A stretch of 64,000 nt of DNA from an uncultured bacterium (GCA_963801165.1 CAWDDT010000006.1:1-64000); one strand, 5' to 3'; positions 19,233-41,514 are shown, numbered from the stretch's first letter. Numbers and translations are program-made. Notes: generated by a model from the sequence alone, not told the origin.

Positions 19233-19260
19233 ATTATAGTCTGAATGAGGGTTCGGTCAA
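19233..19260 (-). promoter_or_regulatory. Sigma70-type promoter, likely leaderless TA mRNA
   Basis: TTGACC-16-TATAAT, ATG 7 nt after the -10; same at 28785-28812. Confidence 0.7.
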
Positions 19261-23811: not shown

Positions 23812-23874
23812 TTCACACGGCAGAGGTCGCCGACCGCAAGCGGTCCGTCCGTTCGATCCCAGTAGCGCCCACCA
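23812..23874 (+). repeat. att-like copy of tRNA-Val 3' half with 18-nt insertion
   Basis: TTCACACGGCAGAGG-TCGCCG-[ACCGCAAGCGGTCCGTCC]-GTTCGATCCCAGTAGCGCCCACCA. Confidence 0.9.
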
Positions 23875-24016
23875 CACGAAGTCCCCAGGAAGGCGGGGGG
23901 TTTTGTGTCAGGCCTCTTTCTGTGGTTCTCCTTTCTGGGTGCCGCGTGCACATTCCGTGCACTTCAGATCCGGCCCAGGGAGGCTCGAGGGTGTCGGCGG
24001 CGTCCCGATCGATGCC
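23813..24016 (-). pseudogene. Integrase C-terminal tail relic reading through the att copy
   Basis: GIDRDAADTLEPPWAGSEVHGMCTR...VVGATGIERTDRLRSATSAV*; start resembles EGVDEAAMEGL of the 9723 integrase. Confidence 0.45.
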
Positions 24017-24095
24017 CCCGCCCGTCGTCTATCGTCGGCGGCCGGTCGTTTCGGCCAATGCGCCACTTCACCAACGTGGGGTGTGTGCTCCACAT

Positions 24096-25316
24096 CTATG
24101 AGAATCCGTCGATCACCGAACCGTCTTGGTTATAGAGCGTCATCGTGTGGCTGGCGAATATGTCGTCTTCGAGGCAGAGGTAGAGCTCGGTGTCGGTGTC
24201 CGTTCCACAGCGGGCGTGAACGAAGATCTGCTGTTTTGGGTCGATCGTGAGTCCGTCGGGGAACTGCAGGGAGAAGGAATCGCCTTCGAGGCTCCAACCG
24301 GTCAGGTCGGCGGGCAGCTCCCCCGAGTTGACGATGACCATGGTATCGCCGGCTCCGGCTTCGCCGTCGGTGTAGATGTGGGGTATCCAGATCGATGCTG
24401 GGTTCGCTTCCAGGTCCGAAACAGGTGTGCGCAACAGGGACTGATCGGTTACCGCCCTGATTCGTGGGCAGTTCGCTGACGCGACTATCTCAAGGCTGCC
24501 ACCGAGGGTGACTTCGGCAGCGGTGTCCTCATAGGCCGTGTAGCTCACCAACGTATCGCCGCTCGCGGCATCAACTATGGCAACGTTGCAGAGAGGATTC
24601 CCCACGTGTGCCTGGATATCGATCCACCAACGGTTGGGAGCATCAACCGAGAGCGTCACCTCTGAGCTGGCTTTCAAATCCTCGTTGCTGACGTAGGATG
24701 CCAGCAGAAGCGGCATCCGACCAGCGAGCGGCTCCCCACAATCGACCAGGACCAGATCGCGGTAGACGCTGCCCTGCCCATATGCGGGGCCCCCGACCCA
24801 GTCTGGCGCCCACTGCGCAGCAAACTCGCCCCCCGGCCAATCGAGAACGACAGGTGCGCTGAGGTAAACCGCTACCAGGAAACCATCCAAGTCGACCTGG
24901 GTGAGACCCTGGGCAGGAGCTATCGGCAATGCGACGCTGAAGGTCTCCGGGATCGCATCCTGTGACGCGATGTACTCGACACAAGCCTCCTCCCCGTAGA
25001 GGTTCAACGATTCGGGATTCAATGCCTGACCAATCAGTGCCGCCGATCCGGTTTCGTGGACGTTGTTCCACGCCTCGACAAACGGCTGATACCTCTCCTC
25101 GACGAGGGAGGTTGTCGTCACGGCGGCATCGCTCCCCGCAACGGTGGCCACGTCAGAGGCTTGGCGCGACTCCGACGCTTCCGTAGTCGAGGTGGTTTCT
25201 CTGACCTGATCACCAATCGAAGTGCCAGAGGTCTCCGAACCCGGGGTCGGGTCGGTCCCGGAACACCCCCCGAGCACAACAAACAGCGCCACCACCGAGA
25301 TCACGAATCGGCTCAT
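24096..25316 (-). CDS. Lipoprotein with C-terminal lamin-tail-like domain
   Basis: Lipobox VLGG-C; C-term VIVNSGELPADLTGWSL, FPDGLTIDPKQQIFV, LYNQDGSVID. Confidence 0.75.
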   Translation of the reverse strand: MSRFVISVVALFVVLGGCSGTDPTPGSETSGTSIGDQVRETTSTTEASESRQASDVATVAGSDAAVTTTSLVEERYQPFVEAWNNVHETGSAALIGQALNPESLNLYGEEACVEYIASQDAIPETFSVALPIAPAQGLTQVDLDGFLVAVYLSAPVVLDWPGGEFAAQWAPDWVGGPAYGQGSVYRDLVLVDCGEPLAGRMPLLLASYVSNEDLKASSEVTLSVDAPNRWWIDIQAHVGNPLCNVAIVDAASGDTLVSYTAYEDTAAEVTLGGSLEIVASANCPRIRAVTDQSLLRTPVSDLEANPASIWIPHIYTDGEAGAGDTMVIVNSGELPADLTGWSLEGDSFSLQFPDGLTIDPKQQIFVHARCGTDTDTELYLCLEDDIFASHTMTLYNQDGSVIDGFS

Positions 25317-25758
25317 CCGACCCCCATCTGGAATCCTCTGCATGCTTGGACGGTGTACCAGGTGTCAATGGTTCCCAACCAATCTCAATCATGCCATTTG
25401 CTTCCGTGCGTGGCAACGTGGCCGCCGACAAGCAGCAACAGGACGGGCACATCTACCAGCACGGTCAGAGGCCCACAGCCCAGAACGCCAAACCTCGCCC
25501 GACAATGAGCACTTCGGATGGCCCGTGCCTCCGCTCGCTTGTGTACCTGGCGTCATGTTGGGTGATTGCTCGTGTTGCCTAGGCCAGACAACAACCACTC
25601 CAAGGCAATCGCTCCGAGAGCGTCGAACATGTCAGGCGAGGCATGACCCTCCGTTGGTGGAGTCGCGAGACAGAGAGTCGTCGCGCCTGCACCCCAGACA
25701 TGGCGGAGCTTGTTGGCGCCTACGCTATGGGTGAAAGAGACCATGGGAACGGATCATC

Positions 25759-26184
25759 GTGCGCATCGGAGATGACGAGCCGGACGACGGACTTCCGAGT
25801 GTCTTGGAGGAACGCCTTTCAACGTTCCCTGTTGCCGCCGTACACGACGACACCGACCGGTTGGCGGCGACGGCTGAGGAGCTACGACAGGTCGCTGCCA
25901 TCGTGAAGGATCTGGGCGCCGACGACAATCGGCGACAGCAGCTGAGGCAGCTCTATTTGAAGGCCCTCCATGCTCGTCTTGCCGAGGCAGGCAAGCTGCC
26001 CCCACAGTCGGATCGTTCTGGAATGGGTTTCGTCATGGTGACCCGCCCACGCGGTGTGCCTCAGACGCTATTTCCGGTAGCTCGATGGCTGAGCTCACGG
26101 ATTGGCGGACCGGTGAGGGCGTGGGTCTCGAACCGTCGGGTGGGGTGGCGCCGCCGTAGGTGGCGACGCCTACTGGCCCGGTGA
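25759..26184 (+). CDS. Hypothetical protein
   Basis: 141-aa ORF, helical N-half, Arg/Trp-rich end; no family recognised. Confidence 0.4.
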   Translation: MRIGDDEPDDGLPSVLEERLSTFPVAAVHDDTDRLAATAEELRQVAAIVKDLGADDNRRQQLRQLYLKALHARLAEAGKLPPQSDRSGMGFVMVTRPRGVPQTLFPVARWLSSRIGGPVRAWVSNRRVGWRRRRWRRLLAR

Positions 26185-26322
26185 GTCGGGAGCGTCCAGG
26201 ACGCGAATAGGACGCGATTTGCTGAAAGACGGTGCAAACTGACGAAAGCCAATGGGCATCAAGTCTCAATGAATCCGGGCGATTATGGCCATTCTCCCAG
26301 GTCGGCGAAACAGCCTGGAAGA

Positions 26323-26367
26323 CCTTCACATGGCAGAGGTCACTGGTTCGATCCCAGTAGCGCCCAC
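26323..26367 (+). repeat. att-like copy of tRNA-Val 3' half (no insertion)
   Basis: CCTTCACATGGCAGAGGTCACTGGTTCGATCCCAGTAGCGCCCAC, 2 mismatches to 7924-7968. Confidence 0.92.
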
Positions 26368-26679
26368 GGAAACCCTTCTCCTTTCTCTGGGCGAGGGACT
26401 TCGCTGTTTTCCATTGTTCAGCAGGGCGAGCGGACGATCAGTCCTGCCTGGACTGCGTCGGAGAAGATGCGGCGAGCAGTTGGAACGCCCTACGGATCGT
26501 GGCCGGTGCGTAGCCCTGGGTGTCGCAGTCATTGTCCGCCAAAAAAGCGACCGGCGTCAGCGAAGGTGCTTCGTGGTGATCCCTACCCATAGCGCAGGGG
26601 GCGCCCGGATGGACTCGCCCCATCGGAGGTTGTGGTCGAGGGGTAGTGTTCGAGGTTCTCTCTGAGCGGAGGACAGATC

Positions 26680-27507
26680 ATGGTTCATGTGGTGCAGCCG
26701 GGCGAGACGTTGGGAGCGATCGCTGCCAGGTTCGGGTCAACGGTGGCGGCGTTTCTAGCGTCCAATCCACAGGTACCGAACGGTGATCTGATCTTCCCGG
26801 GACAGGAACTGACAGTCCCCGGAAACGCCGATGGCGCAGCTGGTGCAGACATTGCCGAGGTCACGGAGGTCGCTCCGGCGGCGTACACCGTGCGTTCGGG
26901 TGACACCTTCCGCAAGATCGCCAGCCACTTCAGCGTGTCGACCGCCGAGCTGATTGCAGCGAACCCGGAGATCTCCAACCCCGCCCTGATCCGACCCGGC
27001 CAACAGATTACAGTCCCCGGCGGAAGGCGCACCAAGGCTGCCGACATGGTGACCACCCCGGTGAAGGGTGGGCTACCGAGATGGGTGGCGGTCGCCAAAC
27101 GAGAGATGGACACGGGTATCGACGAAATACCGGGCTCGGCAGACAACCCGCGGATTGTCGAATACAACCGGACCACAAGCCTTCCGGCTGCGATGGCTGC
27201 CGAGGATGAGACGCCATGGTGTTCGAGCTTCGTCAATTGGTGCATGGCCCAAGCCGGGCTGCGAGGGACTGGCAATGCGATGGCACTGTCGTGGCTCGAC
27301 TGGGGTACCGTCGTGGCTGATCGGCCTAAGCGGGGCACGGTCACGGTGTTTCGACGTGATGGCGGTCCGACTCGTGGGCATGTGGGGTTCTACTGGCAGT
27401 CGTCCGGTGATCGAATCCTGGTGTTGGGTGGCAATCAAAGTGATCAGGTGTCGATCAAGGGCTACCCGAAAGCCGACCTGCTCGGATTCCGCTGGCCGCG
27501 GCCCTAG
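26680..27507 (+). CDS. 2x LysM + TIGR02594-type (NlpC/P60/CHAP-like) peptidoglycan hydrolase
   Basis: HVVQPGETLGAIA and YTVRSGDTFRKIA LysM repeats; DETPWCSSFVNW, GHVGF, LGGNQSDQV. Confidence 0.9.
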   Translation: MVHVVQPGETLGAIAARFGSTVAAFLASNPQVPNGDLIFPGQELTVPGNADGAAGADIAEVTEVAPAAYTVRSGDTFRKIASHFSVSTAELIAANPEISNPALIRPGQQITVPGGRRTKAADMVTTPVKGGLPRWVAVAKREMDTGIDEIPGSADNPRIVEYNRTTSLPAAMAAEDETPWCSSFVNWCMAQAGLRGTGNAMALSWLDWGTVVADRPKRGTVTVFRRDGGPTRGHVGFYWQSSGDRILVLGGNQSDQVSIKGYPKADLLGFRWPRP

Positions 27508-27733
27508 CTGTGAGCTGCCTGCACCTCGGTTCGGCTGCCGGTTCCGACGTGCGAATGCCCGAGTCTCGGCAGATGGCAGAAAGCCAAGCGGAAATCGGCG
27601 TATCGAGGTTGGACACGCTGATCGCCGAGCCCGCCCAATCGTGAAAACGAAATCTGCGGTTGACGCTGAGCCTCATTCCCAGCTCGGTTTCAAGCAAGAG
27701 CGATCTGTCACACGCGTAGATACCTTCACGCCC

Positions 27734-27928
27734 ATGAGCTGCATAGATCTCAACGACGACCAGGGGGGTCTTCTCGCCGTCATCGCCACCAAACAGGCCG
27801 TCCCGGAGCACATGGTGCCCCTGGTCGACGACTTGCGCCGACGGGAGTGGATGATGCCGAACACGTTGGAGCTGACTGGGACAAGGAGGCGACATGTGGA
27901 GAACGCGGGGCCAGGACTGCTCGGGTAG
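27734..27928 (+). CDS. Small hypothetical protein
   Basis: MSCIDLNDDQGGLLAVIAT...LELTGT; no family recognised. Confidence 0.35.
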   Translation: MSCIDLNDDQGGLLAVIATKQAVPEHMVPLVDDLRRREWMMPNTLELTGTRRRHVENAGPGLLG

Positions 27929-27945
27929 GGTTGGGTGGCACCCCG

Positions 27946-28123
27946 CTAAGTCGCGGAGTGCCAGCGATCGTCGATCATCGAGTGGACGTAGTCGTGGCCG
28001 ATCCGGGCGTTCTTGGTGGCGGGGGGCGGCCCCATCTGCCGGCCCCAAGCCCGCCACCCGCCACCTGGAGGGATGCGACCGAGCTTCTTGACGTCGACAT
28101 GGACCAGTTCGCCGGGCCAATCA
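27946..28123 (-). mobile_element. IS481-family transposase internal fragment
   Basis: PGELVHVDVKKLGRIPPGGGWR...IGHDYVHSMIDD, typical of actinobacterial IS481. Confidence 0.8.
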
Positions 28124-28217
28124 GGCACGTCTCTGCTCGGGTGGTCGGATACTGTCAGTTTGTGTCGTTCGCTGGCGGGCCAAGCCGATGACCCTATAGA
28201 CCCCCACGGTGGGCGAG

Positions 28218-28493
28218 CTATCGGGGTCGGTAGATGTCTGCCCGATGGTCGATGTAGATGACCCGGACCGTCCGGTTGATTTCGCTGATCTCGTAGACGA
28301 TGCGATAGGCGCCGACTCTTGCGGAGTGAAGGCCGACTAGGTCGCCTCGCAGCGGTTTGCCGACCCGATGCGGGTTCTCGAGTAATGGGCCTACGAGGTA
28401 GTCCAGGACTGCGAGGGCGATCTTCTCGGGGAGTCGATCAATCGCTCTTCGGGCTGGCCCGGCAACAACCAGATCCCAAGGTGCAGCTGTCAC
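28218..28493 (-). CDS. RelE/ParE family toxin (copy 2)
   Basis: Differs from copy 1 at only a few residues. Confidence 0.92.
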   Translation of the reverse strand: MTAAPWDLVVAGPARRAIDRLPEKIALAVLDYLVGPLLENPHRVGKPLRGDLVGLHSARVGAYRIVYEISEINRTVRVIYIDHRADIYRPR

Positions 28494-28777
28494 GCCGTCT
28501 TGGAGCGGAGTTGGCTACGCAGCGTCTCGATGTCGTCCTTGGTGACGACGTCACCGCTGGCGATGGCTGCCCGTCCTTGTTGGATCTCGCGCATTGCCGC
28601 CGGATCCGAGAGGATCGCCAGGGTCTCTTCGATGGCCTCCAAATCGTCTGTGCTGAGCAGAACGGCGACTGGGCGTCCGTTGCGGGTGACAGTGATCCGT
28701 TCCTGGGTGGTTACCACCTCGTCGACGACTTCTGACAGTTTGGCTTTGACTTCGGAGAGCGGGAGTGTTCTTGACAT
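28490..28777 (-). CDS. Phd/YefM family antitoxin (copy 2)
   Basis: Near-identical to 18938-19225. Confidence 0.92.
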   Translation of the reverse strand: MSRTLPLSEVKAKLSEVVDEVVTTQERITVTRNGRPVAVLLSTDDLEAIEETLAILSDPAAMREIQQGRAAIASGDVVTKDDIETLRSQLRSKTA

Positions 28778-28796
28778 GACCAAAATTATAGTCTGA

Positions 28797-29792
28797 ATGG
28801 AGCTTCGGTCAATCCACGAGCTTGTGGCACGAGCAACGGACCCGAGTTCAAATGAGACCCGGTGGCTCGGCTATGGAGCTACGCCATCCTCATGTCCCAC
28901 TACCGCTGCGGGTCCGGGTGAGTTGGTGGTGCCTTCATGCCCGGACAACGCAACGTGTCCTCTTGCGTTTGTTCTCAATGACGTGTTCTACACAGTGAGC
29001 TGTGCCGCAATCCGGGAGTGGGCGGTAGGCGATGACATGATCGGCAGCGGCGACTTCCACGGCGATAATGTCACGGTCCATCGCATTGACGGGGTCGACG
29101 ATTCGGTGATGGTCGCACTCAGCGTCCCGGGCGGTTTCTGTTCGGAGAACGACCCGGACGAACGCCACACCCCGTGGAGCATGGCATTTGCTGACGAGGC
29201 TGACGATGACCAACTCTCTAACGCACTGTGCGAAGTCGGTGAACTCTCCGCGGCACAGCGACTTGCCGACAGATGTCATCTCGGACAAGAACTCCTGACC
29301 TGCGGCTCAGGACCCGGGTTCCCACCCGACGTACTCGACGACTTGACCCTATACCCACAACCAACCAACAGCTTCGGCGCCGATATCGCCGCTCTCGTCG
29401 GCACAGACGACCCAAACGAACTTGTCGGCTGGCACGCGATCGTCGAGGAACAACAGAGCGATGGGAGCTACATCCAACTCCTACTTCGTGAAGACCCCAA
29501 CAGCGGCGAGCTGCAGTACCTACTCGACGGCAGCGCCGACACCTTCAGCGCCCGCGCTGATGCGAGCCCGAAACGCTCAACTAGTCCGATGACGCGATCG
29601 AACTATCGGGGGCGGTACATTTGTGCCCGATGGTCGATGCAGACGACTCGGAGGTACTGGTGGCTTGGTCGAGTTCGTAGACGATGCGATATGCGGCGAC
29701 TCGTGTCGAGCGAAGACCGGCTGTTTCGCCTCCAGGTGGTCTGCCGACCCGTTGTGGGCTGTCGAGTTGGGGGGTTGTCGCATTTGGCCTAG
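28797..29792 (+). CDS. Cys-containing acidic hypothetical protein; both ends probably damaged
   Basis: Acidic core to about 29560; 5' end overlaps the TA promoter, 3' end is antisense to the relE relic. Confidence 0.4.
   Translation: MELRSIHELVARATDPSSNETRWLGYGATPSSCPTTAAGPGELVVPSCPDNATCPLAFVLNDVFYTVSCAAIREWAVGDDMIGSGDFHGDNVTVHRIDGVDDSVMVALSVPGGFCSENDPDERHTPWSMAFADEADDDQLSNALCEVGELSAAQRLADRCHLGQELLTCGSGPGFPPDVLDDLTLYPQPTNSFGADIAALVGTDDPNELVGWHAIVEEQQSDGSYIQLLLREDPNSGELQYLLDGSADTFSARADASPKRSTSPMTRSNYRGRYICARWSMQTTRRYWWLGRVRRRCDMRRLVSSEDRLFRLQVVCRPVVGCRVGGLSHLA
29603..29766 (-). pseudogene. Third, diverged relE relic (frameshifted, 5'-truncated)
   Basis: LDSPQRVGRPPGGETAGLRSTRVAAYRIVYEL / LRVVCIDHRAQMYRPR*. 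Confidence 0.75.
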
Positions 29793-29847
29793 ACGATCAT
29801 CAGACCGCGCCGATGATCGGCGTCGACCAGCATGGCGGGGCAGCGTC

Positions 29848-31260
29848 TCAGGGTTCGAGGCACTCGGTGAGTAGTCGGACGGCGGCTGGGATGTCGGCGG
29901 TCTCGAGGGCTCCGAAGCCGAGGATGATTCCTGGCTGTGGCTCGGTGGTTCGATAGGTCCGGCGGAGTGTCGAGACGGATAGGTCGCGTTCGGCTGTGCG
30001 TGAGACAATTTCGTTGTCGGTGGGGGCGTTGGGTGCGCGAAGGGTGAGATGGAGACCGGCGTGTCCTGGTAGCACCGTGACCGATTTGGGAGCCTGGCGG
30101 TGTAGTTCGTGTCGCAGTCGATGGTGCCGTTCGGTGTAGACGCGTCGCGCCCGGCGTAAATGACCGTGGAGGTGGCCTTCGGCGATGAAGATGGCCATGG
30201 CGGCGTCGATGAGGTGGGGTGGACCGAAGTCGGTTGCTTGTCGAACGGCGAGCAGTGTCGGCACGAGCGGGCGGGGTGCGACCATGAAACCGAGGCGCAG
30301 GGTGGGGCTGAGTATCTTGCTGAAAGTACCGATGTAAATGACGCGGCCGGTCTGGTCGATGCGGTGGAGCGGTTCGAGGGGTCTCTGCCCATGACGGAAT
30401 TCACTGTCGTAGTCGTCCTCGATGATGACAGCGTCGTTCGTAGCTGCCCACTCGAGAAGTGCAAGCCGGCGTTTGCGAGCGAGCACATGGCCTAGCGGGT
30501 ATTGGTGCGACGGGGTGACGTAAACGAGTTTCGCCCCGGCTGGGAGCTCATCGACGACAAGTCCGTCTCGGTCGACGGGCACGCCGGCGACCACGATGCC
30601 GTGGCTCTCGAGGTTGGTGGCAGCGGGCGGGTAGCCGGGTTCTTCGACTGCTGCGATGTCGCCGGGGCGAAGCAACGTACGGGCGAGCAGGTCGAGGGCT
30701 TGGGTGGCGCCTTGGGTGGCGATGATCTGGTCGGGTGAGGCCACAACTCCACGTGACTGGGTGATCCAGCGAGCAAGCTCTTTGCGGAGTTGGGCGCTTC
30801 CGGCGAGATCGCAGTACTCGGCGAGCCCCTTCCTGTCGACTAGCGCCGCCCGTACGCAACGTCGCCAGGCAGAGAGCGGGAACAGGCTGGCATCGACGTG
30901 TCCGGGGGTCATGTCGTAGCGGAAGTCGGTCATGACACCGGTGCCGTACCGCTGCAATCTGGCCGCTGTCGGTGTTGGACGCACGGCGGTGACGTCGTCC
31001 TGGGGGACGGTCGGTGTGGTCTGCGTTGCGTCGATCACGGTGCCCCCGCCCCGCCGACCGTGGGCGTATCCCTCAGCGACGAGCCGCCCGTAGGCGTCTG
31101 CCACGGTGGCTCGGGAGATGCCGAGCTCCTGGGCGAGGACACGGGTGGGTGTGAGCCGATAGCCGGAGGGAAGCGCACCTTCGGCGATGGCGTCGCGGAG
31201 TTGTTCGTAGATCTGGACGACCATGCTCCGCTCGTCGTCTGGTTTGAGGATCACATCCAA
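29848..31260 (-). CDS. MocR/GabR family regulator (GntR HTH + PLP aminotransferase domain)
   Basis: TRVLAQELGISRATVADAY, YVTPSHQYPLG, IIEDDYDSEF, GTFSK. Confidence 0.93.
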   Translation of the reverse strand: MDVILKPDDERSMVVQIYEQLRDAIAEGALPSGYRLTPTRVLAQELGISRATVADAYGRLVAEGYAHGRRGGGTVIDATQTTPTVPQDDVTAVRPTPTAARLQRYGTGVMTDFRYDMTPGHVDASLFPLSAWRRCVRAALVDRKGLAEYCDLAGSAQLRKELARWITQSRGVVASPDQIIATQGATQALDLLARTLLRPGDIAAVEEPGYPPAATNLESHGIVVAGVPVDRDGLVVDELPAGAKLVYVTPSHQYPLGHVLARKRRLALLEWAATNDAVIIEDDYDSEFRHGQRPLEPLHRIDQTGRVIYIGTFSKILSPTLRLGFMVAPRPLVPTLLAVRQATDFGPPHLIDAAMAIFIAEGHLHGHLRRARRVYTERHHRLRHELHRQAPKSVTVLPGHAGLHLTLRAPNAPTDNEIVSRTAERDLSVSTLRRTYRTTEPQPGIILGFGALETADIPAAVRLLTECLEP

Positions 31261-31276
31261 TGCGTTGCCTGTCTGA

Positions 31277-31325
31277 TTTGGACTGGTCGGATTATGCCAG
31301 TTTGGCCGTTGTCGTGTAGTCCAAA
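31277..31325. promoter_or_regulatory. Candidate MocR-type binding site
   Basis: TTTGGACT...AGTCCAAA inverted repeat in the divergent gap. Confidence 0.5.
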
Positions 31326-31447
31326 GAGACCTAGCGTCGGAGACTGGGAAGGAAATGACGAACCTGGTGTCGATCCAAGCGCATCTCGTCCGAGCATGAG
31401 AGTGAGGGCCGCACCAAGGCGGTTGCACCAAAGAAAGGAGCGCGCAT

Positions 31448-31996
31448 ATGCGCAGGATCAAGTCCAACTTCTTCATTTCCCTCGACGGGGTTGTCGAATC
31501 GCCCGACAAGTGGCATTTCCCGTACTTCGACGACGAGATGGGAAACGCCGTCGGCGCCGGATTCGCCACCACCGACGCCATCCTCATGGGTCGAGTCCTC
31601 TACCACGAGTGGGCGGCGTACTGGCCCGACCACGCCAATGAGCCGTTTGGCGACGTGATGAACTCGATGAAGAAGTATGTGATCTCCGACAGCCTGAAGA
31701 AGGCCGAGTGGCAGAACACCGAGATCATCAGCGGAGATGTCGCCGGGAAACTCGCCGCGATCAAGGCCGAGGATGGTGGCGATATCACGATGTCGGGGAG
31801 TGCCACGACGGTGCGTCGGCTGCTGCGCCACGGTCTCGTCGACGAACTCAACCTACTCGTCCACCCGCTCGTCGTCGGTGGGGGTCTTGCCCGGCTCTTC
31901 CCACCAGACGAGGAAAGCCTCCCGCTGAAGCTGGCGAACGCCGAGACCTTCGAGAGCGGGGTGCTGAACCTCACCTACGTCCGCGACAACAACTGA
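31448..31996 (+). CDS. DHFR/RibD-C family protein (copy 3)
   Basis: FISLDGVVE, LMGRVLY, GSATTVRRLLRHGLVDEL. Confidence 0.92.
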   Translation: MRRIKSNFFISLDGVVESPDKWHFPYFDDEMGNAVGAGFATTDAILMGRVLYHEWAAYWPDHANEPFGDVMNSMKKYVISDSLKKAEWQNTEIISGDVAGKLAAIKAEDGGDITMSGSATTVRRLLRHGLVDELNLLVHPLVVGGGLARLFPPDEESLPLKLANAETFESGVLNLTYVRDNN

Positions 31997-32117
31997 TGGA
32001 ATACGGATGGCGGGGTATCCAAATGCTCGGGATCGGGTACCGAGTTGGTCGCCCCAACTCCAGCCAGCTTTGTACGGGATTGCATCGCGGCGGAGGGAAG
32101 GTGATTGGAGGTATGCG

Positions 32118-33350: not shown

Positions 33351-33390
33351 GGGCGACCAAGGGAACTGACCGGATACATGGATGGAGGCG

Positions 33391-33831
33391 ATGAGCATGG
33401 ATTTCAAGTTGGAACTCGTGATGCTGCCGGTTTCGGACGTCGATCGCGCCAAAGACTTCTACACGAACACGCTGGGGTTCAAGCTCGAAGTCGACGGTGG
33501 CGCCAACGAGGGTGCGCGGAACGTGCAGGTGACTCCACCGGGATCGGCGTGCTCGGTCGGCTTTGGGAGCAGCCTGAGCCTCGACAGCGGCCCACTGATC
33601 ACCGCACCTCCCGGATCGCAGCGAGGGCTGCATCTGGCGGTAGCGGACATCGTCGCTGCCCGGGACGAGCTGGTCGGGCGGGGCGTCGGGGTGGGTGAGA
33701 TCGTCCACATGGAAGACGGTCGCTGGCGGCCGGGAGTGGACCCGGGAAGGAGCAGCTACATGTCGTTCGCCGAGTTCACCGACCCGGACGGCAACCTATG
33801 GCTCTTGCAGGAGATCGGACATGACGCGTAG
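33391..33831 (+). CDS. VOC/glyoxalase family protein
   Basis: VSDVDRAKDFY, VQVTPPGSACSV, FTDPDGNLWLLQE. Confidence 0.92.
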   Translation: MSMDFKLELVMLPVSDVDRAKDFYTNTLGFKLEVDGGANEGARNVQVTPPGSACSVGFGSSLSLDSGPLITAPPGSQRGLHLAVADIVAARDELVGRGVGVGEIVHMEDGRWRPGVDPGRSSYMSFAEFTDPDGNLWLLQEIGHDA

Positions 33832-35314
33832 CAGGGGCGCCCAAATGACAGGGGCGCCGACCTCCCCGAGTAGCGACATCAGCGTCGTTTCGTGGCGCGC
33901 CTTCGACGCGACGCTCCGAGGCCGGGTCGTTCTATCGGATGACGCCGATTTCGACCAGGTGCGAAAGGGGCCGATCGCTAGGTTCGACAATGTCTTGCCG
34001 GCGGCAATCGTCCTGTGTCGGTCGGCGGAAGACGTGGCAGCTGCCGTCTCATTCGCCGGCCGCTCGGGGATCGCCCCCACGGTCCGTAGCGGTGGCCACT
34101 CCTTTGCGGGGTATTCCACCGGTTCAGGGATGGTCATCGACGTTAGCCCCATGCGGTCCATCTCCGTCGTCGGCGGGGTGGCCACCGTCGGCGCCGGTGC
34201 CCGGCTCGGCGAGGTCTACGACGCGATGGATCAACGTTCGCTTACGATTCCCGCCGGTTGTGGGCCCACCGTCGGGATCGCCGGTCTGACGCTCGGCGGG
34301 GGACTGGGGATTCTCGGTCGCAGCCACGGACTCACCGCAGACAGCCTGATCGGCGCCGAGGTGGTTATGGCCGACGCACGTATCGTCACCTGCGACTCCG
34401 ACCACGAGCCCGATCTGTTCTGGGCGCTGCGCGGCGCGGGCGCGTGTGGCTTTGGGGTGGTGACGTCCCTGGTGTTCCGCACCATGCCCGCGCCCCACGT
34501 GACCTGCTTCCATCTCACGTGGCCACCGAGTGAGCTGAGCAATGTTGTAGACGTCTGGCAGGGTTGGGCGCCAACAGCGCCCGACGCGCTGGCTGCCAGT
34601 CTCCTCGTCACCGCCGCCGGAGACGCGGCGCCAAGTGTCAACGTCTTTGGGGCGATGGTCGGCAACGAGTCGGCGACCGATCGGCTCCTCGCAGGCCTGG
34701 CGGACAGGATGGGTGGCGACCCGGAGACCTCGTTTCGCGAGGAGATGCCCTATCGCGATGCCAAGAGGTATCTGGCCGCGTTGGGGGAGCGATTTGACGA
34801 CGGATGGACGGGCGAGATGTCGGCACCGGGTCACAGCTATAGCAAGTCGGAGTACTTCCGGCGGCCCCTCGCCAGAGAGGCGATCGACGGGCTCATCGAG
34901 AGGCTGACCAGGGCGACGGCATCTGGTCAGGTGCGTCAACTCGACTTCACACCCTGGGGTGGCGCCTATAACCGTCTCCGATCGGATGCCACCGCCTTTC
35001 CGCATCGAGAAGAGCTCTTCTTGCTCAAACACGAGCTGATCGTCGACCCGACCCAACCCGATTCGACGACAGACGCCGGCGCCCACTGGCTCCAGAAATC
35101 CTGGGAGACGGTGCATCCGTGGGGATCCGGCGGCGTCTATCCGAACTTCCCCGACCCCGATCTGGTGGACGAGGGCCACACCTACTTCCAGGACAACTTC
35201 GAGCGGCTGGTCTCACTGAAGACCAAGTATGACCCTGCCAACGTCTTTCGATCAGCGCTGGCAACGACGACCTCCGCCGTCCAACACCGTCGCCGCGCCG
35301 ATCACGCCACATAG
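33821..35314 (+). CDS. FAD-binding oxidoreductase (BBE/VAO family)
   Basis: RSGGHS covalent-FAD motif, GCGPTVGIAGLTLGGG, DLFWALRG, YPNF, KTKYDPANVF. Confidence 0.92.
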   Translation: MTRSRGAQMTGAPTSPSSDISVVSWRAFDATLRGRVVLSDDADFDQVRKGPIARFDNVLPAAIVLCRSAEDVAAAVSFAGRSGIAPTVRSGGHSFAGYSTGSGMVIDVSPMRSISVVGGVATVGAGARLGEVYDAMDQRSLTIPAGCGPTVGIAGLTLGGGLGILGRSHGLTADSLIGAEVVMADARIVTCDSDHEPDLFWALRGAGACGFGVVTSLVFRTMPAPHVTCFHLTWPPSELSNVVDVWQGWAPTAPDALAASLLVTAAGDAAPSVNVFGAMVGNESATDRLLAGLADRMGGDPETSFREEMPYRDAKRYLAALGERFDDGWTGEMSAPGHSYSKSEYFRRPLAREAIDGLIERLTRATASGQVRQLDFTPWGGAYNRLRSDATAFPHREELFLLKHELIVDPTQPDSTTDAGAHWLQKSWETVHPWGSGGVYPNFPDPDLVDEGHTYFQDNFERLVSLKTKYDPANVFRSALATTTSAVQHRRRADHAT

Positions 35315-35350
35315 CCCGGGCCTCGAGCCTGGAACCTAGGAGGTTTGGAG

Positions 35351-36235
35351 ATGAAGATATCGATCAGTGTCACCAACTACTCGTGGAACGGGGCCGGCGC
35401 GAGTCTCGTCTCGCAGCTCGACGCGATCGCAATCGCTGCCGACGTTGCGGGTGTCGACACCCTCTGGGTGGCCGATCATCTGGTCCAGGCCGACCCGGGC
35501 GCCAGCCTGGATGAGCCGATGCTCGAGGCATATACCACTCTGGGCTATCTCGCCGCCCGAACGTCGAGATTGAACCTGGGGACGATGGTCACGTGGGCGG
35601 GTATCCGCCCCGCCGCATTGCTGGTGAAGGCGGTCACGACCCTGGTCGTCTTGTCGAGGGGTCGTGGATGGCTGGGGCTGGGAGCGGGCTACCGGGATGA
35701 CGAGGCGAAGATGATGGGTCTGCCGTTTGGGTCCACCCGCGAGCGTTTCGAAGTCCTCGAAGACACCATCGAACTGGCCAAACAGATGTGGGCCGGCGAC
35801 GAGGCTGAGTTCGCGGGCCGGCAGGTCCACGTTGAGCGTCCCATCTCACATCCGGAACCGGTCAGCCCGCCCCGGATACTGATCGGAGGGATGGGGGAGA
35901 AGCGGACCCTGCCGCTCGTGGCCCGTCACGCCGACGCCTGCAACCTGTTCGACATCCCCGACGAAGGCAAGACCATCCGACACAAGATCGCCGTCCTCAA
36001 CGATGTCTGTCGTGAAATCGGCCGCAACCCTGCAGAGATCGAAGCCACCGTCAGTGCCCGCCTCGAACCCTCCGAGTCGGTCTCCAGCCTGGTCGACCGA
36101 TGCGTCGACTTTGCTGACTGGGGCATCGATCACGTCGTGCTCATCACCACCGGACCGTGGGACGCCGACCGGGTCGCCACAGTCGGTAACGCAATCCAGA
36201 CGATCACCGACCTGGGCTCTGGAGGACGCCGATGA
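35351..36235 (+). CDS. LLM-class (probably F420-dependent) oxidoreductase
   Basis: LWVADHL, LEAYTTLGYLAA, LIGGMGEKRTL, HADACN. Confidence 0.9.
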   Translation: MKISISVTNYSWNGAGASLVSQLDAIAIAADVAGVDTLWVADHLVQADPGASLDEPMLEAYTTLGYLAARTSRLNLGTMVTWAGIRPAALLVKAVTTLVVLSRGRGWLGLGAGYRDDEAKMMGLPFGSTRERFEVLEDTIELAKQMWAGDEAEFAGRQVHVERPISHPEPVSPPRILIGGMGEKRTLPLVARHADACNLFDIPDEGKTIRHKIAVLNDVCREIGRNPAEIEATVSARLEPSESVSSLVDRCVDFADWGIDHVVLITTGPWDADRVATVGNAIQTITDLGSGGRR

Positions 36236-36368
36236 TGCCAGGCGATTTACGCGACAACCGTGCCCGCGCCCCGACTGGCCGATCAGTGGCGATTCGTTGC
36301 CCCGACCGTCCGATAGCAGCCCGCCCATCCCCGAAAACCAGTCGGAAACCGACTAGGAGAAGCCGCCA

Positions 36369-36914
36369 ATGCGCAAGATCATCAGCTTCACCCACGCCAC
36401 CGCCGACGGCTACATCGATCGCCCCCATGAGTGGGAGCGCTCCAACGAGGAACTGCAGGACTACATACTGAAGATGCACCTCGACGCCGACGCCCTGCTG
36501 CTCGGCCGAATCACCCACGAAGGCATGGCACAAGCCTGGCCCAACAGACACGGTGACCCATTCTCCGACCACGTCAACTCGATGACCAAGTACGTCGTCG
36601 CGTCCCAGCCGGTCGACACCACGGCATGGGAACCGAGCGTGGTCATCGCCGGAGCCGACCTGCTCGACGAGGTCAGCCGCCTGAAGCAGGCCGATGGCGG
36701 TGACATCGTCATCTGGGGCACGGGACAGCTCACCGATGCCCTCGCCGAGGCTGGTCTGCTCGACGAGTATCGAATCTGCACCGCCCCGGTCATCAAAGGG
36801 GGAGGCGAGCCCCTGTTTCGCCCCGCCAGCGCCGGCGCTCTCGAGCTCCTGGACACCAAGGTCGTTGCCACCGGAGCCGTCGTTCACACCTACCACCCTA
36901 TCTCAGCCCAATGA
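36369..36914 (+). CDS. DHFR/RibD-C family protein (copy 4)
   Basis: HATADGYID, LLLGRITH, WGTGQLTDALAEAGLLDEY. Confidence 0.92.
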   Translation: MRKIISFTHATADGYIDRPHEWERSNEELQDYILKMHLDADALLLGRITHEGMAQAWPNRHGDPFSDHVNSMTKYVVASQPVDTTAWEPSVVIAGADLLDEVSRLKQADGGDIVIWGTGQLTDALAEAGLLDEYRICTAPVIKGGGEPLFRPASAGALELLDTKVVATGAVVHTYHPISAQ

Positions 36915-37076
36915 CCAGCGACTTCGAGCCGACGGCTCGGCAGCGACAACGAGGAGACACGCCATGAACACCTACCTACCGGCGAGACGGTGATCAAGGC
37001 GACCCGAAGGCCACGATCGTCACCCTCTCGATGTCCTGCTTGCAGCTAAGAACGTGACCGTCACTGGAGGAATGCG

Positions 37077-37679
37077 ATGAGTGAACTGATAGTCGACTTT
37101 ATTACCTCGCTCGACGGGTATGCATCGGCGGATGGCTGGCCGGGATGGTGGGGTGTCGCATCCCCCGAGTACCTCGGATGGCTCGGTGAGCAGCCCGAAG
37201 CCACGCTCTTGATGGGCGCCACCACTTACCGTCTCATGTCGGGCATGGCAGAAGGTCGGAACCCGGACGGCACCGACGGGTTTTCTGACGATGAGCAGGC
37301 GGCGATCGACGGGCTAACTCGAGCTTCGAAGGTCGTGTTCTCGTCCACTCTCGATGAGCCGTTGTCGTGGCCAAACAGCACGCTGGTACGGGGCGACGCA
37401 GTGGATGCCGTGCGGGCCATGAAAGAGGACGGCTCAGGTCTGTTGACCACGATCGGCAGTGTCAGCCTGTGCCGGTCACTCGTCACGGCCGGTCTCGTCG
37501 ACCGATTCCGGGTCGTGATATTCCCCGTCATCACCGGCGCCACCGGAGCGGAACGCATCTACGACGGCTACTCCGATATCGCGCTCGAGATGACGCAGAG
37601 CCGCACTTTCGAGGGTGGCCTCCAGATGGTCGAGTACCGACCCCGCGTTCTCGAGCACCCGCCGCTCTACGCCCCATGA
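37077..37679 (+). CDS. DHFR/RibD-C family protein (copy 5)
   Basis: FITSLDGYAS, LMGATTY, GSVSLCRSLVTAGLVDRF. Confidence 0.92.
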   Translation: MSELIVDFITSLDGYASADGWPGWWGVASPEYLGWLGEQPEATLLMGATTYRLMSGMAEGRNPDGTDGFSDDEQAAIDGLTRASKVVFSSTLDEPLSWPNSTLVRGDAVDAVRAMKEDGSGLLTTIGSVSLCRSLVTAGLVDRFRVVIFPVITGATGAERIYDGYSDIALEMTQSRTFEGGLQMVEYRPRVLEHPPLYAP

Positions 37680-37772
37680 CCTGTGTTTCCCGGTGGATAA
37701 TGACGTCCGAACCAACGTTGCCTGAGCGCGATTGCCGTGGATCGTTCAGGCTGAGGTGAGAGGGATCCGGGT

Positions 37773-38579
37773 ATGACCAGGCCGTTCCGATTCGGGGTCG
37801 TTGCCCCGCTGGTAACCGACATGGCGTCGTGGCGGGACCGGCTACGCCGCGTCGCCGACTCCGGCTACGCGACGTTGCTGATGCCTGACGTGCCGCAATG
37901 GCAGCCGGCGCCCGGCCCCACGCTGGCATACGCAGCGGCGCTCGCCGATCTGAAGGTGGGTACCTGGGTTTATGCCTCCCCATTGCGGCCGGCGTGGAGC
38001 ACTGCGTGGGAAGCACATTCGCTGTCGGTACTCACCGACGGGCGTTTCGAGATGGGAATCGGTACCGGCCGGCCAGGAATCGAAGACGAACTCCGCGAAC
38101 TGGGCTTGCCCGTGGTCCCGCCCAGCGAGCGGCTGGCATCGGTGCGTGACACCGTGACGGCTCTGCGGGATCTGGATGGTCCCGACCTTCACACGCCGGT
38201 GGTGATGGCCGTGCGGGGACCGAAGGCCCGGGCGCTGGCGGCCGAACTCGCAGATACGGTCACGTTCGCACTGATGCCGGATGAATCCCGGGCCATGGTG
38301 GCGCGGCTGGCATCGGACTTCCGTGCCGTCGCGGACGTCGAACTAGCACTCCATGTGCCGGTCATAGGCGACGCCGTCGCGCCTTTCATGGCGCCCCCGG
38401 ACACGGATCCAGCGGCGCTTCGGGCCTGGGACTCGCTCGCAGTACTTCCCGATGACCCGGCCGCGGCCGCCGAGGAAATCCAACGGCGACGAGAGGAGAT
38501 CGGCTTTTCCTACTTCGTGTTCGGCGCCGACTTCGCCGACGCGTTCGCACCGGTCGTCGCTCGGCTGGCCGGTAACTAA
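37773..38579 (+). CDS. LLM-class oxidoreductase
   Basis: PFRFGV, LSVLTDGRFEMGIGTG, RRREEIGFSY. Confidence 0.85.
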   Translation: MTRPFRFGVVAPLVTDMASWRDRLRRVADSGYATLLMPDVPQWQPAPGPTLAYAAALADLKVGTWVYASPLRPAWSTAWEAHSLSVLTDGRFEMGIGTGRPGIEDELRELGLPVVPPSERLASVRDTVTALRDLDGPDLHTPVVMAVRGPKARALAAELADTVTFALMPDESRAMVARLASDFRAVADVELALHVPVIGDAVAPFMAPPDTDPAALRAWDSLAVLPDDPAAAAEEIQRRREEIGFSYFVFGADFADAFAPVVARLAGN

Positions 38580-38584
38580 GCCGG

Positions 38585-39097
38585 GTGGAGGCGAAGATGG
38601 ATCGCGGACCGAAGCCCCCGTCGGCAACAGCCGAGACGGACGCTACCCGCCCCACCGCTCGCCGTTCACGAAGCGCCCGCCGCGTTGGATATGCACTCAC
38701 CGCCGGTGTCAACCTCATCGCGTGGTGGATCACCCTCAACCTGCTCGATTGGGGATGGCCCTCATTCCTGACCGGCGCCTTCGAGGATCTGTCGGCGCTG
38801 ATCGGGTTCTCGCTTGCGGCCACCGCCGTGATGAACTTGACCTGGATGGCGCACGACCCGCCGCGGTTCAAACACACCGCCCAGATCGCGCTGAATGTCG
38901 TCAGCATGGCGGTGACCATCCGGACATGGCAGGTATTCCCATTCGATTTCTCGACATTCTCATACGACTGGACGGTGGTGGTGCGCCTCGCAATAGGGGC
39001 GAGCATGCTCGGGCTGATCGTGGCTTCGGTCAGCGAGTTGGTGAAGGTGGTGCCGTTGGCAGGAGATGACGAGCGGAAAGGGGACGGCGATGGCTAA
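38585..39097 (+). CDS. Membrane hypothetical protein
   Basis: 4 hydrophobic segments, VFPFDFS motif. Confidence 0.7.
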   Translation: MEAKMDRGPKPPSATAETDATRPTARRSRSARRVGYALTAGVNLIAWWITLNLLDWGWPSFLTGAFEDLSALIGFSLAATAVMNLTWMAHDPPRFKHTAQIALNVVSMAVTIRTWQVFPFDFSTFSYDWTVVVRLAIGASMLGLIVASVSELVKVVPLAGDDERKGDGDG

Positions 39098-39989
39098 AGA
39101 AAACGCGCAGTTCGAAGTAAGAGAGACCGACCTGAAGCTCGGCGACGGGCGCGTGTTGCATTTCTACGACGCGGGAGTGCTCTCCGATCGGGCGACTACG
39201 GTGTTCTGGCTCCACGGGACCCCCAACGTCGGCGCACCACCCGAACCGCTGTTTCCCGCTGCGGCTCGGCTCGGGCTGCGCTGGGTTTCCTATGACCGGC
39301 CCGGGTACGGCGGATCGACCCCGAATCCGGGTCGTGCGGTGGCTTCGGCAGCCCTGATGTCGCTGCGATTGCGGACGCGGCCGGCGTTGACGTCTTTGCT
39401 GTGATGGGTCACTCAGGCGGGGCCCCACACGCGTTGGCGTGTGGGGCGTTGCTCGGGGAGCGGGTGAACGGCGTCGCCGCCGGGTCGGGTCTGGCACCGC
39501 GCGCCGCATCGGGGCTCAACTGGTTTGCGGGGATGGCCGCACCCGGAACTGCAGAGCTGCGGGCGGCACAGGCCGGACGTGTGGCGTTGGAAGACTATAT
39601 CTCGGGTGCGGTCTTCGACCCGGAGGTCTTTACCCCGGCAGATCTGGCGATATTGCAGGGAGAGTGGGCGTGGCTGGGGATGGTGGCGCAGCGGGGAATG
39701 GAGTCCGGGCCCGCTGGGATGGTGGACGACGACCTAGGCTTACGTTTCCCCCTGGGGGTTCGATCCGGAAGATGTCACGGCGCCGACCTTGATCGTCCAC
39801 GGCGGGCGGGACCGCATCGTGCCCTGCTCGCACGGCGAATGGTTGTCCGATCACATACCGTGCGCCGAGCTCTGGCTGCGTCCAGGCGCAGGTCACGTCT
39901 CGGTGCTCGAGAGCGCAGAGGAGGCGCTCGCCTGGCTGCTCGAAAGGGATCGATCAGGTGGGGAGATGATGACTGATGTCAATATCTGA
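39090..39989 (+). pseudogene. Alpha/beta hydrolase with two frameshifts
   Basis: HGTP, YDRPGYGGS (frame 1); GHSGGAPH (frame 2); IVHGGRDRIVP, GAGH (frame 3). Confidence 0.85.
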
Positions 39990-40773
39990 GGTTGGAGTGC
40001 TCCAGGGTCGTGTGGCGGTGGTCACGGGTGCCGGGTCGGGTATCGGCCGGGCAACGGCCATCGAGCTCGCGGACGCCGCAGCAGACGTCTTCGGCGCCGA
40101 CCTGAACGTCGCCGGTCTCGACAAGACCCGGAAGCTGATCGAGGGCGACTCAGGGTCGTTCGTCGGCGTGCAATGCGATGTCACAGCCGCCGGTGACCTC
40201 GACCGCCTATACGCGGCGGCCGCTTCGAGGTTCGGCGGCGTCGACATCGTCTGCAACATCGCCGGTGTAGGGGGAGGCGACGATTGGCTCACCGATTCCG
40301 ATGGCGAGTGGCGGCGGGTCATCGACATCGATTTGGTCGCCGTCATCGATGCCACCCGCGCCGCGTTGACGCATCTGCGTGACGGCGGGATCATCGTCAA
40401 CGTGGCGTCGTTGATCGGCCTGTACCCGATGGCCTCGGCAGCGATCTACGGAGCAGCCAAAGCCGGAGTCGTTCACTTCACGCGCTCACTAGCCGACATC
40501 GGCGCACAACGGAATTGTCATGCGGTCGCTATTTGTCCGGAACTCGTCGACACCCCGCTGGCCGAAACCGGGATGGGCGCCGACGCAATGAGCCGGCTGC
40601 GCCAAGAAGGGGCAGTCGTCACACCAGCCGACATCGGCGGCCTCATCCGGGACATCGTTGTCGACCCGATGTCATATGGCACCGTCGTCCAAATCACCCA
40701 GCAGGGCGGCGTCGAGACGATCGACCTCACCCCGACTACAGTCACAACCGAGACAAAAAGCAGCACGCAATGA
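39976..40773 (+). CDS. SDR family oxidoreductase
   Basis: TGAGSGIG, CNIAG, YGAAK (YxxxK). Confidence 0.93.
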   Translation: MSISEVGVLQGRVAVVTGAGSGIGRATAIELADAAADVFGADLNVAGLDKTRKLIEGDSGSFVGVQCDVTAAGDLDRLYAAAASRFGGVDIVCNIAGVGGGDDWLTDSDGEWRRVIDIDLVAVIDATRAALTHLRDGGIIVNVASLIGLYPMASAAIYGAAKAGVVHFTRSLADIGAQRNCHAVAICPELVDTPLAETGMGADAMSRLRQEGAVVTPADIGGLIRDIVVDPMSYGTVVQITQQGGVETIDLTPTTVTTETKSSTQ

Positions 40774-41121
40774 GCAAACTGATCGGCGAGTTCATCGCAT
40801 CGGCTGCCAGAGACCCCGACGGGTTCGTCGCCAGCGGCATCGAAAAGGGTGCAGCCGGGGGCTTCTCGTCCCAGTCCGTCGCTCGCGGTTTGAACGAATT
40901 CCGCCCCGACGAGATGACGGGGCCGGCCCCCTCCGCCTGTACCGGGCGACGGCTATCGGCCTCTGGGTGCTGGGAGAGCACGACCAGCGGATACCGGTCA
41001 GGCTCGAATGATGCGCCCCGAATCCGCCTCAATGACTCCACACGCCGCACATCCGATGCTGCCCGATCGCTGGTCACTCACGCCATGCCGAGTCCACCAT
41101 ACGCTCGAGCGACGAAGAACG

Positions 41122-41256
41122 TCAGGGAGGCGGCACCGAGTCGCTGTCCCAATTGTGACGATCGACCCAGGCGCCGTGAATCAGCACGAGCGGAGGACCG
41201 TTCCGTCCCGTCCGCTCCCACCAGAGGCCGACTCCGTTGATCACGGTCTTCGGCAT
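41122..41256 (-). pseudogene. Alpha/beta hydrolase N-terminal fragment
   Basis: RBS GAGGAGG; MPKTVINGVGLWWERTGRNGPPLVLIHGAWVDRHNW then stop. Confidence 0.7.
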
Positions 41257-41451
41257 GTTGCCTCCTCGCTGCCGTGCGGGACGCATCCACGGTCCGAGAC
41301 TACCGAACGGCGCCGACCCGTGCTCCGTCGGCACCGCAAGCAAACCACGGGAACGTGACAACCAGCAATTGCGGTCATGGCCGGCAACAACCAGTGGTGA
41401 ACCGTGGATGCTCGGAGGGAACCGGTGATGGTCGGTGGCGTCGGTTGCGCG

Positions 41452-41514
41452 TTCACATCGCAGAGGTCGCGGACCGCAAGCGGTCCGTCCGTTCGATCCC
41501 GGTAGCGCCCACCA
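41452..41514 (+). repeat. att-like copy of tRNA-Val 3' half with the same 18-nt insertion
   Basis: TTCACATCGCAGAGG-TCGCGG-[ACCGCAAGCGGTCCGTCC]-GTTCGATCCCGGTAGCGCCCACCA. Confidence 0.88.

Follow-up and report, generated by a model that had tools for sequence, protein, structure and literature searches.

How does one and the same 18-nucleotide (nt) palindrome come to interrupt two separate fragments of a transfer RNA (tRNA) gene, and what does it mean for the DNA that such fragments border? The question is raised by a 64,000-nt stretch from an uncultured bacterium (GCA_963801165.1, CAWDDT010000006.1:1-64000), hereafter the window, to whose full length all coordinates refer unless a contig is named. 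The genome it belongs to (G000) comprises 13 contigs and 4.55 Mb. The sole tRNA in the window, by both ARAGORN and Rfam calls, is an intact tRNA-Val(CAC) gene, and three copies of its 3' part follow on the same + strand, at 23812, 26325 and 41452. The palindrome is present in the first and last of these, called copies a and b here, and absent from the middle one. We refer to the palindrome-bearing fragment as the hairpin half, and it is a recurrent variant of displaced tRNA fragments, a well-known class, that calls for no new insertion mechanism. The explanation that we favour, with a probability of roughly 0.5, is one old attachment-site (att) allele, of attR or attB' type, that cannot restore the gene. 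It would have been reshuffled by site-specific recombination and gene conversion, would bound islands without an integrase, and would be kept out of live tRNA genes. At similarly even odds, old islands would stand in a tandem array at tRNA-Val(CAC), and each of the two sites would mark the right end (an attR-type junction) of one of them. The parts of the gene and of the two copies are as follows.

7896-7969, + strand: intact tRNA-Val(CAC), the attachment gene heading the island array (ARAGORN; Rfam RF00005, 68.1 bits; sequence).
23812-23828, + strand: copy a, anticodon-loop core TTCACAC followed by GGCAGAGGTC, the putative crossover core; tRNA identity starts here.
23829-23846, + strand: copy a, palindromic insertion GCCGACCGCAAGCGGTCC, 18 nt, stem GACCGC/GCGGTC, centre AA (sequence).
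23847-23873, + strand: copy a, mutated T-stem strand GTCCG, T loop, T-stem 3' strand, acceptor 3' strand and ACC.
41452-41468, + strand: copy b, core TTCACAT followed by CGCAGAGGTC, with two changes relative to the tRNA (sequence).
41469-41486, + strand: copy b, palindromic insertion GCGGACCGCAAGCGGTCC, 18 nt (sequence).
41487-41513, + strand: copy b, GTCCG, T loop, CCGGT, acceptor 3' strand and ACC.

Both fragments repeat the tRNA from TTCACA to CCCACC, broken by the 18-nt insertion and an altered T-stem strand. Because they run from the anticodon loop to the 3' end behind an intact tRNA on the same strand, the view of a first-pass annotation of this DNA, that they are displaced att copies in a tandem array of islands, is well founded. 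The insertion reads GC[C/G]GACCGCAAGCGGTCC (23829-23846 and 41469-41486), and the palindrome of copy b gains 8-base-pair (bp) arms, CGGACCGC/GCGGTCCG, once neighbouring bases are included. The 5' T-stem strand is also changed in both copies, from ACTGG to GTCCG. The same annotation had put the hairpin inside that strand. Sequences of relatives place it instead at the boundary between the variable loop (AGGTC) and the T stem, because genome G130 retains AGTTG, and G226 GCTGG, before the T loop.

The identity of the two hairpins was also reported correctly: the 18-mer ACCGCAAGCGGTCCGTCC, at 23833-23850 and 41473-41490, is matched twice (with at most two mismatches) against 0.02 matches expected from shuffles, and no third copy exists across the assembly. 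Inspection of 7896-7969 and of the middle copy (26325-26367, earlier given as starting at 26323) agreed that neither carries the hairpin. What did not hold was the surprise at finding an identical insert amid divergent surroundings, since the upstream arms are homologous (62% over 140 nt). The two copies share 87% identity across 103 bp, with a perfect run of 29 nt, and belong to one arm family, so the identical 18-mer is unremarkable in itself. Support from reads, on which the reality of the copies had been made to depend, is good for copy b, which lies on a 4673-nt short-read contig from the probable source run with one difference. Copy a has thin cover in Logan contigs, at a depth of about 2, which counts neither for nor against it. 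An independent salt-marsh run (X5) contains a relative with the same hairpin and no differences inside it.

The possibility that only these two copies exist was dispelled by a search for variants across the order and metagenomes, which recovered homologues in 11 genomes, representing three families of one order, and in six metagenome contigs. Within the genus, 3' halves of tRNA-Val(CAC) often stand in tandem arrays, 3'-end matches being present in all 15 genomes, and hairpin halves occur in four of the 15 (G000, G040, G046 and G047). Other genera of the family contribute G130, G132, G033 and G024, together with a remnant in G022, and beyond the family there are G165, G156 (family f5) and G226 (family f6). 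The metagenome contigs are L052, L053 (two copies), L057, L060, L065 and L074, of which L065 and L074 are the same sequence. The 41452 locus has an orthologue in L060 and in run X5, with the same hydrolase on its right. When the metagenome pattern was made blind to isotype it returned 31 stretches, comprising six tRNA-Val-like hairpin fragments, 23 unrelated contexts, and two (L071 and L079) that by eye resemble a genuine class II tRNA.

Alignment of 15 hairpin halves points to a common origin. The most conserved columns are TTCACAC plus GGCAGAGGTC, and the stems GACCGC/GCGGTC are kept while the centres vary in sequence (AA, T, ACA, CAT, TTT, TGC, ATG, TAGG, TTCCG) and in length (1-5 nt). The unpaired T-stem strand GTCCG is common to 9 of the 15 aligned halves, and therefore indicates one ancestor that was non-functional already, not repeated insertions and not a once-functional native allele. 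On the mechanism proposed here, the palindrome would not have been inserted twice; both copies would carry a single non-functional ancestral allele, the hairpin half. Repeated site-specific micro-insertion, which the first-pass annotation offered as a way to mark or lock displaced att sites, is unlikely given that the variants are homologous and share the mutated T-stem strand. A longer hairpin half is found in G226:C31 (L136) at 1605-1681, with two palindromes (GACCGC-T-GCGGTC and GGCTGC-TCC-GCAGCC), a nearly intact T stem (GCTGG/CCAGT), and a 49-amino-acid integrase remnant 60 nt to its right.

The position of the hairpin invites another idea, namely that the hairpin half is, or formerly was, part of a transcribed tRNA-like RNA whose variable arm is long, or of a native tRNA-Val of class II type. 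The likeness to a class II variable arm had been noticed earlier and is real: the hairpin lies between the anticodon stem and the T stem, and ARAGORN, given a molecule joined in silico, calls a tRNA-Val(cac) that has a long extra arm. In addition, one T-stem pair is regained through an A-to-G substitution on the 3' side in copy b and the second copy of L053, and likewise in G024, there in a register of its own. However, the joined molecule has a weak T stem and a minimum-energy fold that is not a cloverleaf. ARAGORN and Rfam find no tRNA at the hairpin halves in situ, calling only 7896-7969, and no 5' half is attached to one anywhere. In the 15 copies the hairpin stems are 89% paired and the T stem 65%, wobbles included. 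The covariation check revealed no compensatory pairs, none having changed on both sides, and the hairpin scored no better than shuffles. A gap-pattern scan of one representative genome per species returned only the fragment of G040. A check for RNA runs listed none.

A transcribed RNA, also among the first-pass suggestions, must accordingly be considered highly improbable. Valine is not a class II isotype, and a native class II tRNA-Val is ruled out by the unpaired T-stem strand shared by 9 of 15 halves and by the absence of the joined form. Derivation of the insertion from another tRNA of the genome was rejected as well, the best local alignments to 48 predicted tRNAs scoring only 10-12. A 94-nt 'tRNA-Gly(ccc)' that ARAGORN draws in G000 at C4:505752-505845 is a false positive, as the region reads as coding.

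How the hairpin half came to stand beside different neighbours is best seen from its left arms, which for the three copies in the window are these.

23690-23811, + strand: type-A island arm (P-arm side) of copy a (sequence; alignments to other genomes and contigs).
41330-41451, + strand: type-A island arm of copy b, 82% identical to the L060 arm (alignment).
26195-26367, + strand: type-C arm with a normal half lacking the hairpin, the half itself being 26325-26367 (sequence; alignment).

Whatever the arm type, the anticodon loop is the exact point from which a junction matches the tRNA, in agreement with one of the subsites listed by Islander, which distinguishes anticodon-centred, T-loop and junction subsites (PMC4383910). 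In the type-A arm of copy a, a motif of about CCNGTGRTGA is repeated directly, four times in all, and these repeats look like arm-type sites. The type-A arm recurs in 17 aligned junctions with unrelated cargo to the left, and it is joined to a hairpin half in 10 and to a normal half in 7, with a further normal case in G024:C67. In the arm tree, arms with hairpin halves and arms with normal halves are intermixed. For example, the arm of G226:C31 (hairpin) is 91% identical to that of G226:C8 (normal), and the arm of copy a is 78-79% identical to normal-half arms of G226:C8 and G232, compared with 62% for the arm of copy b. Type-B arms likewise occur with the hairpin (G040 and G047) and without it (G044, G046, G047 and, twice, G048).

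Arms and halves thus assort independently among the aligned junctions. Because arms of either type carry either half, arm and hairpin must be separable, most simply via a crossover at the core. Each junction consists of a type-A arm, then the putative crossover core TTCACAC plus GGCAGAGGTC, then a degenerate 3' half with the 18-nt palindrome and a broken T stem, and a tyrosine recombinase crossing over at the anticodon-loop core would exchange the hairpin half among left arms. The T-stem strands of some hairpin-less type-A or type-A-like halves are non-canonical yet fit each other (ACGGG/CCTGT in G078, GGCGG/CCGCC in G082 and ACCGG/CTGGG in G027). This suggests that both strands come from one tRNA and that the crossover lay to their left.

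The main alternative to this favoured explanation moves the crossover to the other side of the hairpin, which is situated exactly between the anticodon-loop and T-loop subsites. On this view a family of elements would recombine within the T loop or the 3' end, the hairpin would be a piece of their P arm, and their attP would contain a degenerate tRNA mimic made up of an anticodon-like core, the hairpin and GTCCG. The mimic core would afterwards serve as a secondary target for anticodon-loop elements, which would account for the varied left arms. Such a scheme suits several features of the data. Conservation stops where the tRNA does, at its 3' end, beyond which nearly all right flanks are different. 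Several halves are near-perfect in the T loop and acceptor, while in G165, G033 and G132 a decayed 3' part stands beside a well-kept core and hairpin. The family includes fragments whose first bases are those of the T loop (G039, G107 and G092), and T-loop and junction subsites are recognised by Islander (PMC4383910). The absence of the joined form would also need no selection. Finally, the first hairpin half of L053 has an 11-nt D-arm-like sequence, AGCTCAGCGGG, upstream.

Against this alternative stand the fitting T-stem strands of G078, G082 and G027, which point to a crossover left of them, and the fact that arm lineage is unlinked to the hairpin. At a T-loop core site, moreover, GTCCG would mirror CCAGT only poorly. 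No consistent left arm of its own was found, and two hairpin/attP patterns returned no stretches, and no attP, from viral contigs. With arms and hairpins assorting independently, we regard the T-loop crosser with a tRNA mimic, the remaining first-pass reading, as a minority rival that is unlikely to be correct.

Several related sites deserve description in their own right. The left arm that precedes the first hairpin half of L053 begins at the contig end (1-26), and its opening bases, AGCTCAGCGGG, match the tRNA D-arm region exactly. The next 15 bases are unrelated, and the match may be what is left of a longer tRNA-like arm. A core of TTCACAC plus G[G/A]CAGAGGTC without a T loop or acceptor is present at G024:C34 (L139) 13641, in G244:C150 (L130), at G232:C2 (L153) 5820 and at G203:C66 (L129) 1506. 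G024 and G244, which belong to different families, have about 60 nt in common after the core, starting with GGGGACCG, which resembles the hairpin start. Four tandem copies of the tRNA-Val 3' end, from near the T loop and spaced about 100-165 bp apart, lie at G120:C30:2363-2831, and similar short tandem series occur in G126:C165, G114:C44, G035:C103, G021:C24 and G039:C176. They look like small tandem duplications or T-loop-type junctions, and G039 shows the same right flank behind its tRNA as behind the fragment. The tRNA-Val(CAC) of G049:C63 (L048), at about 16900-16966, reads CTGCC TTCAC GGCAG with an anticodon loop two bases short, and is either a damaged gene or an assembly error.

The right flanks tell a second part of the story. 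The flank of copy a opens with one further feature and extends to about 24016.

23882-23909, + strand: terminator-like hairpin with a T run, opening the right flank of copy a.

Terminator scans call only this site, outside the insertion, and nothing at 41250-41750, and the palindrome itself was on this basis rejected as an intrinsic terminator. Intact tRNA-Val genes with normal halves in G047, G041, G038 and G045 are followed by flanks that match the one of copy a at 77-86% identity, and in G047 the homologous flank is followed by an integrase. Sharing a flank with normal halves would require either gene conversion over a short tract or another exchange, this one within the 23 nt of identity that stretch from T loop to 3' end. 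Either process would exchange hairpin halves among right flanks, and this right-side route would be the simplest reason for the identity of copies a and b.

The same flank can be accommodated by a history of damage and repair. According to this idea an element attP carries the hairpin half, integration at the anticodon loop damages tRNA-Val(CAC), and a later island with a good half repairs the gene. The loss could be tolerated because tRNA-Val(UAC) is present; genes for tRNA-Val(TAC) and tRNA-Val(GAC) are both encoded in this genome. The flank of copy a belongs to the P' flank family of the integrase-bearing element in G047, and G226:C31 retains its 49-amino-acid integrase remnant 60 nt right of the hairpin half, which together hint that integrase-bearing elements formerly lay right of hairpin halves. 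Islander also counts 148 islands 'with damage' (PMC4383910). Even so, the damaged intermediate is seen in none of the 401 genomes searched (described below), none of the hairpin halves examined has an intact integrase on its right, and the right flanks of hairpin halves are not one family. We rate this history as somewhat less likely still than the T-loop alternative.

If the hairpin half can recombine at its core, where is it never found? A search of 401 genomes sampled from the order, which looked for a tRNA anticodon stem leading directly into the hairpin start, found no case of the hairpin joined to a 5' half. The eight genomes that matched had fragments with foreign left arms or, in G203, a truncated copy without the hairpin. 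Within the genus the hairpin is present in none of 12 tRNA-Val(CAC) genes and in 5 of 16 displaced anticodon-type halves, a contrast that a hypergeometric test places at about 0.04 (one-sided) among genomes that are kin. The hairpin half occurs farthest from the tRNA in the arrays of G040, G046 and G047, is the sole fragment in G130, G165 and G033, and is both first and last among the three fragments of G000. As the first-pass annotation had reasoned, such a half could not rebuild a normal tRNA, its T stem being broken. Rebuilding being impossible, the hairpin half is found only in displaced positions.

These properties suggest a dead-end attB'/attR allele, with a core that would still be recombinable and a gene that could not be restored. 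Excision that joined the hairpin half to the 5' half would break tRNA-Val(CAC), and islands bounded by it would tend to be fixed. The integrase content of such islands is in keeping with this. Hairpin-half islands include a full-length integrase in 0 of 9 cases, one having a truncated gene, and normal-half islands have 4 full-length and 2 partial integrases among 9. The neighbourhoods examined in the metagenome contigs and in G130 revealed no integrase beside a hairpin half. In the window, the genome-wide PF00589 scan found none in 26368-41451 and, from the tRNA to 41514, a single remnant, away from the tRNA.

9723-10544, - strand: truncated tyrosine integrase, a 273-amino-acid open reading frame (ORF) covering profile positions 34-169 only (PF00589, 2.5e-14; tblastn).

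The bounded islands contain no integrase other than this truncated ORF and are therefore relics, not active islands. The integrase contrast fits either greater age or a fixing effect.

A fixing effect could also be exerted by the palindrome directly. It might be a selected cis element in displaced sites, such as a site for a dimeric protein or a structural block next to the B' core, either acting as a lock against excision or re-use, or else a mark for a safe secondary landing place. Its placement directly after the 10-bp core site, its retention across three families, the 89% pairing of its stems in 15 copies around a centre that varies from 1 to 5 nt, and the lack of an intact integrase in all nine bounded islands are each compatible with this. 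However, without compensatory changes the stems may merely be young, and a centre of variable length suits a mutation-prone palindrome more than a fixed protein site. The DNA folds with ordinary energies (z = 0.72 and -0.59), no candidate binding protein recurs beside hairpin halves, and this genome holds only two copies. Selection on the palindrome is doubtful to about the same degree as the T-loop alternative. The related proposal that the hairpin half is a selected dead-end att site travelling with islands, in which the palindrome blocks the last excision or makes it harmful, seems no better than a long shot of similar size.

Several observations also weigh against the single old allele that we favour. 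The crossover point is inferred, as no intact element combining the type-A arm, both junctions and an integrase was found. Between families, hairpin halves agree at about 85-100%, and shared genes are only about 70-76% identical even within the genus, so a passive relic would require horizontal spread. In many hairpin halves the T loop and acceptor strand are almost undamaged, which would fit a young, host-derived 3' end, as the T-loop alternative predicts, at least as well. The gene-conversion tract between copies a and b would be at most about 40 nt, with flanking identity of 17 and 23 nt. The integrase contrast of 0/9 versus 4-6/9 may reflect age only, being borderline in size and drawn from kin genomes.

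A further proposal concerned coding on the opposite strand, where the insertion had been said to keep open the frame of an antisense integrase tail. PF00589 is silent at both sites, the frames differ between copies a and b, and the three antisense ORFs through the fragments (P0001-P0003) are short and match no Pfam family. Overlap of an integrase C terminus with the att site was discarded on these grounds. Eight integrase frames in this genome converge on a tRNA, and they end 1-101 nt past its 3' end without a single overlap. A dispersed palindromic repeat, resembling repetitive extragenic palindromes or miniature inverted-repeat transposable elements, was rejected because GACCGC..GCGGTC occurs at two sites only in 4.55 Mb.

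The remaining content of the array is ordinary. Between the tRNA and 41514 the cargo includes TetR, hydrolases, an ATP-binding cassette transporter, a major facilitator superfamily protein, LysR, RibD_C and a lamin-tail domain (LTD) protein. It also includes LysM/CHAP, an aminotransferase-GntR protein, oxidoreductases and a short-chain dehydrogenase/reductase. Three further features stand out.

18666-19231, - strand: Phd/YefM antitoxin and ParE toxin, copy 1 of a module of about 700 bp (Pfam).
28218-28783, - strand: Phd/YefM and ParE pair, copy 2 (Pfam; self-match).
42741-44198, - strand: NhaA Na+/H+ antiporter (Pfam PF06965, 2.6e-140).

The two toxin-antitoxin modules, at 18568-19267 and 28105-28815, are 86% identical to each other. 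In G040, G046, G047 and G048 this module of about 700 bp, at about 84-94% identity, lies about 170 bp left of the ends of type-B islands. Beside both copies in the window the type-B arm and its fragment have been lost, and there follow cargo, a type-A arm and a hairpin half. NhaA is the first gene right of the array with synteny in G047 and G048. G000, G047 and G048 have different DNA in the interval from the last fragment to NhaA, and a vertical relic at a fixed chromosomal border was rejected on this ground. In the salt-marsh relative of run X5, window positions 23851-24007 are joined to 26425-27169 by 578 other bases that replace 24008-26424. The replaced segment, which contains the LTD gene, the type-C arm and the normal half, is thus variable between close relatives.

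How does the hairpin half compare with known systems? The closest precedent is the set of displaced tRNA-gene fragments left by tyrosine-integrase islands, with an anticodon-centred subsite and tandem arrays, that Islander describes (PMC4383910). As in that set, an intact tRNA gene is followed by 3' copies in the same orientation that start at the anticodon loop, each marks an island end, the islands lie in series, and an arm with repeated motifs stands left of each fragment. In contrast to those fragments, a conserved 18-nt palindrome and a mutated T-stem strand make the gene not restorable here, and one variant recurs in three families with different arms and flanks. Lacking an intact integrase, hairpin-half islands would be rejected by Islander's filters. 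More generally, island finders that match fragments would miss or mis-bound such islands because the repeat is interrupted and the integrase absent.

Cis-mobilizable elements (CIMEs) are integrase-less, cis-mobilizable remnants within accretion arrays of integrative and conjugative elements and integrative and mobilizable elements. Those arrays resemble the one in the window in their shared att sites, their members without recombination genes and their hybrid internal junctions. What sets the locus apart is a junction variant that cannot regenerate its target gene, and any mobilisation of its islands would be conjectural. pSAM2 is an integrative element of actinomycetes that resides at a tRNA gene. 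Elements of its type share with this locus an Actinomycetota host, att identity from the anticodon loop to the tRNA 3' end, and an integrase convergent on the tRNA, an arrangement with eight tRNA-integrase pairs in this genome. They differ in that hairpin-half islands lack replication and transfer genes and an intact integrase. As for class II tRNAs, the shared trait is an extra arm between the anticodon stem and the T stem, and the differences are the missing 5' half in situ, the broken T stem and the absence of covariation.

Displaced tRNA fragments are standard landmarks of genomic islands, and as a rule they are regarded as inert. The hairpin half is a fragment variant that appears to retain the recombination core yet cannot rebuild the gene; it is found in three families with different partners and is excluded from live tRNA genes. 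If this exclusion reflects selection, such variants would decide which islands of an array can leave and which become permanent host DNA. Should a lock of this kind operate, the tRNA-Val(CAC) array would never be emptied and its cargo islands would be fixed in the host. Several element families in one order of the Acidimicrobiia would then have in common a hairpin half that works in cis, as a lock or ratchet, against the loss of islands.

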